Shown here piece by piece: positions 46,943 through 50,501 of a stretch of 56,731 nt of DNA; position 1 is the stretch's first letter, and each line of letters starts with the position of its first letter. The position numbers were made by a program, and so were the translations under genes. Location: NCBI GenBank assembly GCA_035509435.1, contig DATJLR010000001.1, positions 1 through 56,731 on the forward strand. Direction: 5' to 3'. Source of the stretch: Minisyncoccota bacterium (GTDB lineage Bacteria; Patescibacteriota; Minisyncoccia; UBA6257; 2-01-FULL-56-20). The notes beneath the pieces were generated by a model. The model ran no database searches. It had not been told where the DNA came from and saw only the letters and a list, made by a program, of their open reading frames with translations.

Positions 46943-47206
46943 CTATATTTCTAAACGAAAGGAGCGGATCGCCATATGATAGCCGGGGAATGTCAATGCG
47001 CCAAACCGGTCAACCCAAAACTTTTCGAAGAATTCGAGCGCGCGATGACAGAAGAGGTCATTCCCGAAATCGTAGAGATTATGACGCTCCGTGCGCGCTT
47101 GGCGAACGAAAGCCGCGAGAAGTTCATTGATCGCTAAAGCCCAAACCAGATCATCGCCCACTCCAGATATTCTGCGAGTGGGTTTCCTTTTATCCTGCTT
47201 TGGCAT
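46943..47206 (-). CDS. Small hypothetical protein
   Basis: ATG lies inside the left arm of the 47197 element; converges tightly (2 nt) with the 46659 ORF. Confidence 0.35.
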   Translation of the reverse strand: MPKQDKRKPTRRISGVGDDLVWALAINELLAAFVRQARTERHNLYDFGNDLFCHRALEFFEKFWVDRFGALTFPGYHMAIRSFRLEI

Positions 47207-47329
47207 AGCGCACACGCACATCCTTTTGAGGGATTTTCGGAGCCGCGAAGGCGGCGAGAACAAGACGCGCGCTCAGCAGAGCGCGACGTCGTGCCCTCAA
47301 AAGGATGTGCGTGTGCGCTATGCCAAAGC
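47197..47329. repeat. Long inverted-repeat element A (36-bp perfect arms, two-hairpin core)
   Basis: Arms 47197-47232 and 47294-47329; inner hairpins GCCGC-GAAG-GCGGC and CGCGCTC-AGCA-GAGCGCG. Confidence 0.9.
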
Positions 47330-47353
47330 CGTAGTTTCATCTAAAATAGAGGA

Positions 47354-48889
47354 ATGGCAAAGAAGACCGCAGTGTTGATCGTGCTCGACGGATGGGGTAT
47401 CGGGAAGAACGACGAGACGAACCCGTTATTCGTAGGGAAGCCGCAGACATTCGCATGGCTCGCGGAAAATTATCCGATCACGAGCCTGCAGGCCTCCGGC
47501 ATCGCGGTCGGCCTCCCGTGGGGCGAGGTGGGCAACAGCGAGGTGGGCCACCTTACGCTCGGCGCCGGCAAGGTGCTCTATCAGTATTATCCGAAGATCG
47601 TGATGGCCATCCAGGACGGCACGTTCTTCGAGAACGAAACGCTCAAAGCCGCCTGCGCTCATGCGCGCGACAACAACAGCGCGATAAATTTTGCGGGGCT
47701 GCTCACCAAAGCGAACGTGCATGCGTCGCTCGACCATCTGCGCGCGCTGATCAAAATGGCGCAGCAGGAGAACGTGCCCAAAATAAATCTCCACCTCTTT
47801 GGCGACGGCGAAGACAGCCCGCCGCACACCCTGCAGAAATTCCTGGAAGAAGTGCCGAAGGAATATGTAGCGACGCTCGTCGGCCGATATTACGCGATGG
47901 ACCGAAACCAGAACTGGCGGCTGACGCAGACGGCATACGAAGCGATGGTCGGAACATCGGGCACGCTCGTGCAGGATCCGAATCCGGCGATCGAAGCGAC
48001 ATACAAACAGGGCTCCACGGAAGAATACCTTCCCGCCCTCCGCCTTGCGGAAGATAAAAAGATAAGCGACGGCGATTCGCTCGTATTCTTTAATTTCAGA
48101 GAAGACAGCATGCGCCAGCTTGCGTCGGCGTTCATCACGAAGGGATTCGATCATTTTCCCGTACAGCCGTTCAACAACCTCTCCGTCGCGACCCTCACCC
48201 ACTACGATGACGCGTTCGATGTGCCCGTCGCATTTCCCGCGGACCGCGTGGAAACGCCGCTCGGCAAAGTGCTTTCCGATGCCGGACTCACGCAATTGCG
48301 CCTGGCCGAGACATACAAATACGCCCACGTCACCTATTTCTTCAACGGCCTTCGCGAAGAGCCGTTCAAGGGCGAGTACCGCACGCTCGTGCCGTCCAAC
48401 ATGGGCCCGCATCCCGAAGCGCATCCGGAGATGATGGCCGTTCCCATCACCGACCGGCTCGTGGAGGCCATTGAAAGCCGCGGCTTCGACTTCATCCTCG
48501 TGAACTACGCGAACTCCGACACGATCGCGCACACCACCGACTTCAACGCCGCGCTCGAGACGATCAAAGTGATCGACGCGCAGATCGCGCGCGTGGTGAA
48601 GGCGGCGGACAATCCCGACACGTTCCTTTTCATCACCTCCGACCACGGCCACATCGACGAGATGATCAAAGAAGCGACCGGGGAACCGGAAAGCTCGCAC
48701 ACCCCGAACCCCGTCCCGCTCTACCTTGTCGTCCAGCAGTTTAAAGGAAGGAGGTTCGTGAATGCCGACCGGCTCGCGCTTGAGACGCTCGGCTCCCTCG
48801 CCGACGTGGCGCCCACCATCCTCGCCCTGATGGGCCTCCCAAAGCCGGACGACATGACCGGCAGCAGCCTCCTGGACGGCTTAATATAG
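47354..48889 (+). CDS. gpmI: 2,3-bisphosphoglycerate-independent phosphoglycerate mutase
   Basis: LIVLDGWG, GNSEVGH, GRYYAMDR, AETYKYAHVTYFFNG, TSDHGH, SHT.NPVP. Confidence 0.95.
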   Translation: MAKKTAVLIVLDGWGIGKNDETNPLFVGKPQTFAWLAENYPITSLQASGIAVGLPWGEVGNSEVGHLTLGAGKVLYQYYPKIVMAIQDGTFFENETLKAACAHARDNNSAINFAGLLTKANVHASLDHLRALIKMAQQENVPKINLHLFGDGEDSPPHTLQKFLEEVPKEYVATLVGRYYAMDRNQNWRLTQTAYEAMVGTSGTLVQDPNPAIEATYKQGSTEEYLPALRLAEDKKISDGDSLVFFNFREDSMRQLASAFITKGFDHFPVQPFNNLSVATLTHYDDAFDVPVAFPADRVETPLGKVLSDAGLTQLRLAETYKYAHVTYFFNGLREEPFKGEYRTLVPSNMGPHPEAHPEMMAVPITDRLVEAIESRGFDFILVNYANSDTIAHTTDFNAALETIKVIDAQIARVVKAADNPDTFLFITSDHGHIDEMIKEATGEPESSHTPNPVPLYLVVQQFKGRRFVNADRLALETLGSLADVAPTILALMGLPKPDDMTGSSLLDGLI

Positions 48890-48959
48890 AGGAAATCTTT
48901 TAATCAATTTTTAATGTGGGTGTGGTAGCGTTGGGTTAGGCAAAAATGCCGAACCCACC

Positions 48960-49526
48960 ATGGAATATTTCTTCGCCTTTCTCATTCAAGATTATCAGCA
49001 GATCGCGCTTTATTTGGTCGTGCTGTATTCCGTTATCTGGATAACGGCAAAGGTCAGCGGGTTCTATTTTAAAACTTCGGAGCTTCACACCAAAATGCCG
49101 AACATAGAACGGTTATTGGAGAAACTCGATATCGGTCTCGCGGCGCTGAACGATGCGCTTCTCGGAAAATCGGTCATTGACAAATCGTACTACTCGAGGG
49201 ATCGCAGCCCGCGCACCGTCAACGAACTGGGCGAGCGCCTGTTCAAAGAGAGCGGCGCCGAAGCGGCATTTGCGGCAATGAAAGACCCTCTGGTCGATGA
49301 ACTGGCGTCAAAGCAGATCCATTCGCTCCTCCAGCTGCAAACAGCCTCTCTCAACGTGATGATCGCCCACCGCAACGACCCCATCCTTAAGCCGCTTCAG
49401 GATTTTGTGTACGAACACCCCACCTACCATAACACGCCGCTCGGCTACACAGACCTGCTTTTCGTCGTCTCCCTCAAATTGCGCGACTACTACATCTCCA
49501 AACACCCTGAGCTCAACTCAAAGTAG
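48960..49526 (+). CDS. Hypothetical protein with N-terminal TM and helical domain
   Basis: 188 aa ORF; TM followed by SPRTVNELGERL..SG and C-terminal LKLRDYY..HPE. Confidence 0.7.
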   Translation: MEYFFAFLIQDYQQIALYLVVLYSVIWITAKVSGFYFKTSELHTKMPNIERLLEKLDIGLAALNDALLGKSVIDKSYYSRDRSPRTVNELGERLFKESGAEAAFAAMKDPLVDELASKQIHSLLQLQTASLNVMIAHRNDPILKPLQDFVYEHPTYHNTPLGYTDLLFVVSLKLRDYYISKHPELNSK

Positions 49527-49528
49527 CC

Positions 49529-49879
49529 ATGCCTTGGCCGCGATACTACCGAAAACGCCGCGAACGGATGATGCGACAGGATCCGCACTGCCATTGGTGC
49601 CGCAGGGAACTGAAACTATATCCCGGCTATGGCAAAAACGGGTTTAAAAAGATGCCTGAGGATTATCCCACCATTGACCATCTCACGTCCGCGTTCATGG
49701 GTCCACGAAAGAACGGCGACGGGAAGACGCGGACGCTCGTCATCGCGTGCCCCAAGTGCAACAACGCGCGCAACGTCGCCGAAACCCGCGAGCACATCTG
49801 GCGCACGCGCTGGAAGTCAGCCGCATTCCCCTTCCCGCTCCGCTGGCTCGGCACCCTCCTTAAAAAATTCCGCAGGTAA
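49529..49879 (+). CDS. HNH endonuclease-family protein
   Basis: CHWC...TIDH...LVIACPKCNNAR (zinc-binding HNH pattern). Confidence 0.82.
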   Translation: MPWPRYYRKRRERMMRQDPHCHWCRRELKLYPGYGKNGFKKMPEDYPTIDHLTSAFMGPRKNGDGKTRTLVIACPKCNNARNVAETREHIWRTRWKSAAFPFPLRWLGTLLKKFRR

Positions 49880-49959
49880 AAAGCTGACTTTCCAAGCCAT
49901 ACTTAGCGAATTATTTTTCAAACGATTCTGATAACTTTATAAATTTGTCGATAAAGAAA

Positions 49960-49983
49960 TAGGGATGTCCAGAGACATCCCTA
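49960..49983 (-). terminator. Intrinsic terminator
   Basis: TAGGGATGTC-4 nt-GACATCCCTA followed by TTTCTTTAT on the minus strand. Confidence 0.65.
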
Positions 49984-50004
49984 CTCGCTGATGGCGGTGG
50001 AAAA

Positions 50005-50259
50005 TTACCAGCAGTACCGACGGCGGTTGGGAATCTGGCTCCGTTTCGTAATCGGCGATGCCCCGGATGCGATTGCCCTTAGTGCAGGGATTCGTCCGAG
50101 AAGCATTTTCTGCCATTCCGACCGCTTGGTTTTTTCCGCGAGAACCAGCCGACGGCAGATTCTCCCGATAATTCCACTTGCCTTGAGCCCCCTCTGGCAA
50201 TCCAGGCAGGGACGATTCAGGCAATTGGCATGACGAGGATCAATAGCTCTCTCGCACAT
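50005..50259 (-). CDS. Small basic Cys/His-rich protein
   Basis: GGAGG RBS before ATG; MCERAIDPRHANCLNRPCLDC; terminator follows. Confidence 0.5.
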   Translation of the reverse strand: MCERAIDPRHANCLNRPCLDCQRGLKASGIIGRICRRLVLAEKTKRSEWQKMLLGRIPALRAIASGASPITKRSQIPNRRRYCW

Positions 50260-50361
50260 ATGTAATTCCTCCAGGGAGATTATAGCATAATATATCTAAA
50301 ATGGGAAGGTACCCCTCGGATTCCGAGCCAAGCAAAAATATTTCTATTATAGTTGCTGTTC

Positions 50362-50501
50362 CGTTTTTGGATTATGGCACTGCCTTTTTCTTTTTCGAGG
50401 GGCTTCGCAGGCGGCGAAGGCCGCCGAGAGGGAGCGGCCGCGCAGCAGCGCGGAACGCGTACCCGAGAAAAAGGAAAAGGCAGTGCCATAATCCAAAAAC
50501 G
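50362..50501. repeat. Long inverted-repeat element B (40-bp arms, 37/40 match, two-hairpin core)
   Basis: Arms 50362-50401 and 50462-50501; inner hairpins GGCGGC-GAAG-GCCGCC and CCGCGC-AGCA-GCGCGG. Confidence 0.9.

Follow-up and report, generated by a model that had tools for sequence, protein, structure and literature searches.

Why should two intergenic spacers of one bacterial contig hold palindromes whose long arms differ while their centers appear to be the same? This question is raised by elements A and B in a 56,731-nucleotide stretch of DNA from a Minisyncoccota bacterium (contig DATJLR010000001.1; hereafter the window, meaning the whole stretch, to which all positions refer, with the structures of A and B described on the + strand). 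Both elements are members of a real, widespread, and previously undescribed family of palindromic intergenic repeats of the candidate phyla radiation (CPR)/Patescibacteria, and the named matches to this family are Paceibacterota/Parcubacteria. It is best described as a palindromic intergenic repeat family, not annotated before, in which the usual logic of repeats is reversed: the termini evolve freely, and a branched center is near-invariant and covarying.

One junction between unlike arms

The limits, arm lengths, and 60–61-nt interiors of A and B (Table 1) are those given by the original prediction, which was made from the letters of the window alone. Its description of the arms as dissimilar holds overall, but an inner segment, TTTT(N)GAGGG / CCC(NN)AAAA, is common to the arms of both elements. 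The three mismatches in the main arms of B are one U·G pair and a tandem G·A/A·G. An inverted-repeat scan and a DNA fold agree that B extends further: its palindrome resumes beyond a 9-nt bubble and occupies 50338–50525 as a whole. The outer left arm (50338–50361 region) repeats in mirror form what lies to the right, namely the −10 box and start region, and the outer right arm reaches the first two bases of the ATG (50524–50526) of a holin-family gene.

Chance similarity or faulty assembly, for which only the small number of copies in the window (two) could speak, is refuted as an explanation. The motif GAAG-N5-6-GAGA-N12-18-AGCAG occurs twice in the window against an expectation of 0.01. Compared with dinucleotide shuffles, A and B have fold z-scores of −15.8 and −12.6 as RNA; compared with shuffles as DNA, the scores are −17.1 and −12.3. 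Element B is identical in L001, an independent Logan assembly of the same organism, and is therefore not an assembly artifact; A has no such second assembly, since the L001 contig starts just after it. Dozens of covarying relatives point the same way.

These relatives bear out the expectation that further copies of the same architecture exist. When one genome per GTDB species was scanned with a strict pattern, 14 matches came back. Three of these show the complete architecture, and each is from CPR: a Candidatus Paceibacterota bacterium, a Candidatus Parcubacteria bacterium, and an uncultured bin. A second pattern, for which the 3′ half of the core served as the sole source (GAGARSRAG...CAGCAG...CGTRCCC), found 117 loci in metagenome contigs, about 64 of them real and with 49 distinct cores, and had no match in viral contigs; a loose pattern applied to viral contigs gave at least 120 chance matches, none real, and was abandoned. 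The covariance model R1, built from the metagenome cores, identifies 79 copies (70 distinct) in the fetched loci, of which about 16 had been missed by the search pattern. Across the family the unit is an imperfect palindrome of 120–205 bp. In the window, A and B are the only matches to R1, even with filters off, and the antisense strand of A scores 27 bits, as opposed to 91 bits for the sense strand.

The original prediction recognized no named family in the elements, and this holds for Rfam 15: a gathering scan of the whole window returned tRNAs only, and scans of A and B at E ≤ 10 returned only weak, unrelated families far below their gathering scores. BLAST of phage and plasmid records gave no relevant match, and the searchable literature on palindromes, MITEs (miniature inverted-repeat transposable elements), hairpins, and structured RNA in Patescibacteria/Parcubacteria contains no description of the family. 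TIGR-Tas arrays were considered and set aside; they are tandem guide arrays, and hence not this element.

The core, of about 60 bases, has the same architecture everywhere, a three-way junction. Its first helix, P1, is formed by the arms, which end GGG/CCC, usually after a tandem G·A/A·G or its Watson–Crick equivalent; the pair that closes P1 at the junction covaries (G·A 29, A·G 28, C–G 8). P2 is a 5-bp helix whose register is set by columns 18 and 44 (C–G 25, U–A 18, U–G 6, unpaired 0); a first register (CUCUC/GAGAG, with a 3-nt bulge) was dropped for this one, in which the two columns covary. Compensatory replacement of P2 is complete in copies that were not ascertained by pattern, for example AUGCC/GGCGU. 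An invariant internal loop, G-(G/C)-A opposite G-A, links P2 to P2b, a freely covarying hairpin that is absent in some copies and about 60 nt longer in others; it is expanded by 30–60 nt, with the rest of the junction kept, in L180 (598–727), L235 (2942–3088), L202 (2004–2139), and L154 (3703–3821). A single invariant A lies between P2 and P3, a helix of 10–11 bp with a conserved bulged A and a C-AGCA-G loop, and a conserved G-U joins P3 to P1 before the CCC. In all, some 16 unpaired core positions are invariant or nearly so.

This architecture alters the earlier picture of two hairpins separated by linkers. The GAGA and the two 8-nt spacers, previously taken as unpaired, are strands of the P2 and P3 helices, and the GAAG loop of the first hairpin, thought to be a shared feature, is only one variant of P2b. 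The AGCA loop, by contrast, is conserved across the family.

The compensatory change first noticed between A and B is found throughout. In the model-based alignment 90% of the cells assigned to pairs are paired, and sliding the partners brings this down to 40–53%; covariation scores 0.63, compared with about 0.1 in the control, and 33 of the 36 pairs have changed on both sides. A MAFFT alignment gives 87% of cells paired and a covariation score of 0.52; taken over both alignments, slid controls stand at about 45% paired. With the non-pairing column 17 excluded, the core helices comprise 1250 Watson–Crick pairs, 17 G·U (1.3%), and 11 A·C among 1338 cells; pair 18–44 includes U·G but no C·A. The arms are usually 0–2 mismatches short of perfect, and in them G·U exceeds A·C (61 vs. 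36, p = 0.014, for sequences that are not independent). The junction structure is thus shown to be under strong selection, and this family-wide covariation supports the proposal of an element selected for its structure as a single strand or cruciform.

Persistence, turnover, and multiplication

Two syntenic relatives of the window, L154 and L246, with about 80% DNA identity over RNase Y, allow orthologous sites to be compared. Element A stands upstream of gpmI in all three, in the same orientation, and its outer arm motif TTTGGCATAGC is kept in both relatives. In the middle of the arms the sequence has been exchanged on both sides, with full compensation: GCACACGCACATCC / GGATGTGCGTGTGC in the window, GCGCACTCATACTC / GAGTATGAGTGCGC in L154, and CATACTCTTATCC / GGATAAGAGTATG in L246. 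At the site of element B, L154 has a diverged orthologue (3703–3821) in which P2b is extended, and L246 has a plain hairpin, the element itself not being present. In a further orthologous trio (L226, L230, and L191) the cores are almost identical and the arms are unalignable yet perfectly paired. Comparison of these loci shows that copies persist at orthologous sites for long periods, with arms that turn over by fully compensated change.

Elsewhere, copies share their arms. The Ga0210057 lineage harbors at least 13 copies of a unit of about 205 bp, all with identical arms and clear-cut ends (TA-YATTCAAC...GTTGAAC-N-TA), and in the Ga0196965 lineage the arms are partly shared among copies. In some genomes, then, complete units have multiplied as DNA, and the copies afterwards stay and diverge at their sites. 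Within the loci, every match to the ends of the Ga0210057 subfamily lies in a complete short element; no solitary ends, and no ends flanking an open reading frame (ORF), were found there, nor was an autonomous copy that would encode a transposase. In one copy of this subfamily (L152 126–304) the core is flipped with respect to the asymmetric outer arms, a flip/flop-like event; 12 other copies keep the standard arrangement.

The window also contains, at 55425–55500, a hairpin with 23-bp perfect arms, a 30-nt interior, and a promoter-like site (TTGACA-N18-TATAAA) directly after it. It was rejected as a decayed third copy: the three-way core is missing, and R1 scores only about 12 bits. A 12-mer that it has in common with the arm of the L146 element, ACAAAACCCCTC, is about what chance would produce. 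The structure may be a relative in decay or else a boundary hairpin of separate origin.

Genes and signals around the copies

Copies of the family are intergenic, lie mainly where at least one gene ends, and occur in either orientation. Among 26 copies flanked on each side, at no more than 400 nt, by an ORF of 120 aa or longer (crude ORF calls), 10 stand between convergent genes, 15 between tandem genes, and one between divergent genes; the tandem copies divide into seven sense and eight antisense. Both orientations are found on single contigs, and the GC skew of the sense strand (C-rich at 31 loci, G-rich at 19) is not significant. Assemblies often break at the element, as in L001, and many matches lie at contig ends.

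Some sites are occupied very tightly. In L202 (886–3009) three copies within 2.1 kb fill the spacers of rpmE|prfA|rpsB|tsf, all antisense, with arms that reach stop and start codons. In three genomes (L125 361–536, L182 4285–4433, and L236 3387–3556) an antisense copy abuts the 3′ end of tRNA-Ile(GAU); its arm overlaps the acceptor strand, and the outer arm consists of tRNA acceptor and T-arm sequence and an inverted copy of it. At two further loci (L220 353–780 and L238 2327–2745) two elements of different subfamilies stand in tandem, about 100–190 nt apart, an arrangement that recalls clusters of the BIME (bacterial interspersed mosaic element) type.

In the window, A and B are both sense to the genes that follow them. 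The 3′ end of A lies 12 nt ahead of the TAAAAT box of gpmI, whose predicted promoter is ATGCCA-16-TAAAAT (47320–47347), and the promoter of the holin-family gene beside B is also kept in L154 and L246. The −10 boxes of both genes, TAAAAT and TGcTATAAT, end 6 nt before the ATG (47342–47356 and 50509–50526, and at the same sites in L154 and L246), a gap which suggests that the gpmI and holin-family mRNAs are leaderless or nearly so.

Table 1. Elements A and B and their flanking genes in the window
Feature	Position	Strand	Remarks
Small ORF upstream of A	46659–46940	+	
Small ORF upstream of A	46976–47137	+	AAAGGAG ribosome-binding site
A, left arm (P1 5′ strand)	47197–47232	+	36/36 complementary to 47294–47329; 3′ end TTTTGAGGG
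A, core (61 nt between arms)	47233–47293	+	Three-way junction; R1 91.4 bits, E = 1e-23
A, core closing pair	A47233 with G47293	+	Non-canonical
A, P2	47234–47238/47258–47262	+	
A, internal loop	47239–47241/47256–47257	+	GGA / GA
A, P2b hairpin	47242–47255	+	Loop GAAG
A, junction A	47263	+	Junction GU at 47291–47292
A, P3	47264–47274/47279–47290	+	Loop AGCA 47275–47278; bulged A 47286
A, right arm (P1 3′ strand)	47294–47329	+	Outer end is the −35-like ATGCCA of the predicted gpmI promoter
gpmI	47354–48889	+	Downstream of A
Small gene upstream of B	50005–50259	−	Apparent gene; GGAGG site; TG-extended −10 box at about 50279–50307
B, outer left arm	50338–50352	+	ATATTTCTATTATAG; 15 nt, 93% complementary to 50511–50525; paired in DNA fold
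B, left bubble	up to 50361	+	9-nt mismatch between outer arm and main arm
B, left arm (P1 5′ strand)	50362–50401	+	37/40 complementary to 50462–50501; 3′ end TTTTCGAGGG
B, core (60 nt between arms)	50402–50461	+	Three-way junction; R1 79.8 bits, E = 3e-20
B, core closing pair	G50402 with A50461	+	
B, P2	50403–50406/50428–50432	+	
B, internal loop	50407–50409/50426–50427	+	GCA / GA
B, P2b	50410–50425	+	Loop GAAG
B, junction A	50433	+	Junction GU at 50459–50460
B, P3	50434–50443/50448–50458	+	Loop AGCA 50444–50447
B, right arm (P1 3′ strand)	50462–50501	+	
B, bubble and outer right arm	50502–50525	+	CTATAATAGGAATAT; holds TG-extended −10 box TGcTATAAT 50509–50517
Holin-family gene	50524–50892	+	Pfam PF04020; downstream of B

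Between gpmI and B, at 48960–49879, lie ORFs of 188 and 116 aa. The latter has a CxxC...DH...CxxC pattern, HNH-like in look, with no Pfam match, and Pfam likewise gives no match for the small ORFs beside B. A 26-codon remnant of the 188-aa ORF occurs in L154 (3900–3990), and L246 has a different small ORF at this place; these differences mark the DNA next to B as a variable spot.

Farther upstream, a tRNA at 46345–46417 (+) has an odd anticodon loop, CCUGCCA. It is reported by ARAGORN as "tRNA-???", reaches 49 bits with the Rfam tRNA model in a local scan, and is absent from the tRNAs that the gathering scan of the window returned. Possibly it is a tRNA of the Ala(UGC) type whose position 33 is C. 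A strong promoter-like site, TTGACA-16-TACTAT (46444–46471, +), stands about 40 nt before a bidirectional terminator hairpin with an A-tract and a T-tract (46508–46561). The interval 46444–46561, for which Rfam has no match, could delimit a small RNA of about 85 nt.

The nature of the element and its known counterparts

We hold it to be about an even call that the family is an old, non-coding palindromic DNA repeat of Patescibacteria, similar to MITEs and to repetitive extragenic palindromic (REP) sequences, whose center is recognized as a folded single strand; this reading is ranked above that of a structured RNA. The element would, on such an account, act and be maintained at the DNA level, folding as single-stranded DNA or being extruded as a cruciform nucleated by its two GC-rich mini-hairpins. 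Intrastrand templating (quasipalindrome correction) would keep the arms perfect and allow the palindrome to grow across flanking promoters. The invariant unpaired bases—the G-N-A/G-A loop, the junction A, the AGCA loop, and the GU—may form the recognition surface for a putative structure-specific protein, with a transposase/nickase or a host factor as the candidate. If transcribed through, the 25–45 bp stem might serve as a transcript-boundary or RNase III-type hairpin, which would explain its tolerance and retention between genes.

Several observations favor a role at the DNA level. The arms are near-perfect, and orientation is independent of transcription. In the core, G·U is no commoner than A·C, and a G·U share as low as that given above is unusual for an RNA family. 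The palindromes also mirror −10 boxes and start regions: the gpmI −10 box is mirrored on the left side in both L154 and L246, in L246 together with the start codon, and B mirrors the −10 box and start region of its own neighbor. If the mRNAs start near the ATG, pairing in RNA cannot select for such mirroring. The flipped core of the L152 copy is a further sign of this kind. The likeness to REPs and MITEs that had been proposed from A and B is sustained by the intergenic placement, the use of either orientation, and the multi-copy, TA-ended families of some genomes.

Other observations, however, count against this account. Deep conservation lies in the center and not in the termini, opposite to what ordinary MITEs and REPs show. 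Functional RNAs, too, are marked by invariant loop and junction bases, a peripheral stem of variable length, and non-canonical covarying pairs, and the excess of G·U over A·C in the arms hints at a preferred strand. No clean pair of empty and filled sites was obtained, and the TA ends of the Ga0210057 units may be the repeat's own bases, which without an empty site are indistinguishable from a target duplication. In most genomes, including this one, the arms differ in every copy, so there is no sign of recent transposition. Nor has an enzyme come to light: no gene for a transposase, for an HUH protein, or for a RAYT (REP-associated tyrosine transposase) was recognized from N-terminal sequences among the ORFs of the window, all of housekeeping and glycosyltransferase type, or as a recurrent cluster in the ORFs of about 830 kb of loci, a minority of which were scanned against Pfam. 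ORF clustering over the element-bearing loci, in search of a recurrent partner protein, returned only syntenic housekeeping clusters. Mobilization by an HUH enzyme of the RAYT/IS200 type, as suggested by the original prediction, is therefore not supported; a REP-type GTAG and a strict strand bias are lacking as well.

The features shared with functional RNA deserve a reading of their own, tentative as it is: the core may belong to a class of structured RNA that is new, either a protein binder or a small ribozyme, mounted on a long double-stranded stalk, and the DNA palindrome would then be no more than its gene. Transcription would come from its own or from neighboring promoters, possibly with release by RNase III cuts in the arms. 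Strong covariation in every helix, the roughly 16 invariant or near-invariant unpaired positions, the G·A/A·G/C–G closing pair, and the tandem G·A motif all agree with an RNA, as do the variable length of P2b (between about 0 and 60 extra nt, a kind of variation seen in many families of RNA), the strand-specific conservation seen with R1, long-term retention at orthologous loci, the occurrence of U·G without C·A at pair 18–44, and the G·U excess of the arms. Yet orientation is unrelated to flanking transcription, neither a conserved promoter before the element nor a terminator after it is found, core G·U is about as rare as A·C, and no Rfam family matches even at the permissive threshold. Palindromes have, moreover, spread over promoters and a start codon, and units multiply, arms included, as DNA repeats. 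A related proposal, possible but again clearly short of probable, is that the 60-nt junction constitutes a new functional module: either such an RNA class on its double-stranded stalk, or a T-shaped DNA hairpin signal for an undescribed nickase or recombinase that copies or maintains palindromes. Were it the DNA signal, the fixed center and free arms would reflect a mechanism of mobility or maintenance unlike those of known MITEs and REPs.

The positions of the copies might instead suggest purely a terminator or insulator hairpin of the host, with the conserved core incidental, a reading that we consider unlikely. The copies stand almost always in convergent or tandem contexts (25 of 26, with a single divergent case), the next gene's promoter often follows directly, the B site of L246 holds an ordinary hairpin, and copies occupy the rpmE|prfA|rpsB|tsf spacers and follow tRNA-Ile. 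However, the flanks of 72 copies show no U-tract after the stem on either strand, though canonical hairpin-plus-T terminators do occur in this genome (e.g., 46508–46561). A host hairpin of this kind does not need the invariant 60-nt junction, which is far better conserved than the stem, and B sits between apparently divergent promoters. Far less probable still is an inverton, in which the core would flip between inverted arms. Perfect inverted repeats around an asymmetric segment have the right form, and the L152 copy is indeed flipped; but the orientation of the core is constant among orthologues at the gpmI site, the tRNA-Ile site, and the site shared by L226, L230, and L191 (three each), 60 bp is very short for site-specific inversion, and no recombinase gene lies nearby.

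Whatever its biochemistry, the family has consequences beyond this window. The genomes of CPR/Patescibacteria are very small and tightly packed, and an element of 120–205 bp held at the same sites across species is therefore unlikely to be junk. Its reversed pattern of conservation points to an unrecognized protein–nucleic acid recognition system or a new structured RNA. The family offers a clean natural example of the maintenance of palindromes and their spread over neighboring promoters. In practice, it accounts for breaks in the assembly of CPR metagenome bins, and its covariance model is ready for use in annotation.

Among known systems, several candidates were compared and rejected. Retron msr-msd, which would have a reverse-transcriptase gene directly downstream, is not indicated: the downstream genes are gpmI and the holin-family gene, and the loci contain no recurrent neighbor cluster resembling a reverse transcriptase. 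The ends of IS200/IS605 elements, whose active strand is expected on the lagging-strand template, do not fit the strand counts (31 vs. 19, no strict replication strand bias) or the opposite orientations on single contigs. Intrinsic terminators lack support in the absence of a T-run, and the one hairpin picked out by a terminator scan is the internal P3 of A, on the minus strand. A K-turn consists of a 3-nt bulge followed by tandem G·A, and the binding site of ribosomal protein L1 has invariant G–C pairs of a helix 77-like stem beside an asymmetric loop. Mimicry of either (GGAG.../...CGAGA) was dismissed: the loop is 3 × 2 (G-N-A / G-A) with no extra bulge, and the P2b pairs covary freely.

Two systems with folded-strand recognition are closer in form. 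The attC sites of integrons are, as is presumed here, recognized as a folded strand by structure over sequence; they too lie at gene 3′ ends and have variable terminal structure. In attC, however, the conserved part is the base, with its outer R″/R′ boxes (RYYYAAC/GTTRRRY), and the tip is free to vary; the present family does the opposite. No such boxes are found at the arm ends of A (GCTTTGG...CCAAAGC) or B (CGTTTTTGG...CCAAAAACG), orientations are mixed, and there is no cassette array or intI context, so that attC was also rejected. The inverted terminal repeat (ITR) of adeno-associated virus (AAV) has a long A stem and two cross-arm hairpins, is recognized and nicked by the HUH protein Rep, and exists in flip and flop forms. 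By analogy, the shape of the present element would resemble these parvovirus T/Y hairpins in its long stem with two short hairpins, its one or two unpaired junction bases, its asymmetric center, and its occasional flip. It differs in having no sequence relation to the ITR, no Rep gene, and no viral context (0 matches in viral contigs), and its copies occupy internal chromosomal sites and not the ends of a molecule.

The closest parallels in behavior are found among chromosomal repeats. Correia (NEMIS) and ERIC/IRU elements are MITE-like palindromes of 100–155 bp in Neisseria and enterobacteria, and resemble the present family in size range, in their long imperfect palindrome, and in the absence of an ORF. 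They likewise insert beside genes and contribute promoter-like boxes, and TA stands at both ends of the unit in one lineage here; a long transcribed stem would give, here too, an RNA hairpin of the RNase-cut type. Those elements have conserved terminal inverted repeats and narrow taxonomic ranges, whereas in this family the termini diverge beyond recognition and the center is near-invariant. Shared terminal repeats, as expected of a MITE, are seen in the Ga0210057 lineage and partly in Ga0196965, and not in the window, where the two copies have different arms. REP/BIME and REPIN sequences are likewise extragenic palindromes at gene 3′ ends and in operons, in either orientation, a placement that the present family shares. 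Both kinds also have in common single-strand hairpin formation, long life with vertical inheritance, and a plausible effect on the ends of mRNAs. REPs are 20–40 nt long, with a conserved GTAG, family-wide stems, and a RAYT (a Y1 HUH transposase), whereas here the stems vary and a branched center of 60 nt is conserved; A and B differ in their stems, and neither has a REP-type 5′ GTAG. On the best reading of these likenesses and differences, the palindromes of Patescibacteria are closest in behavior to REP/BIME and to repeats of the Correia/ERIC type.

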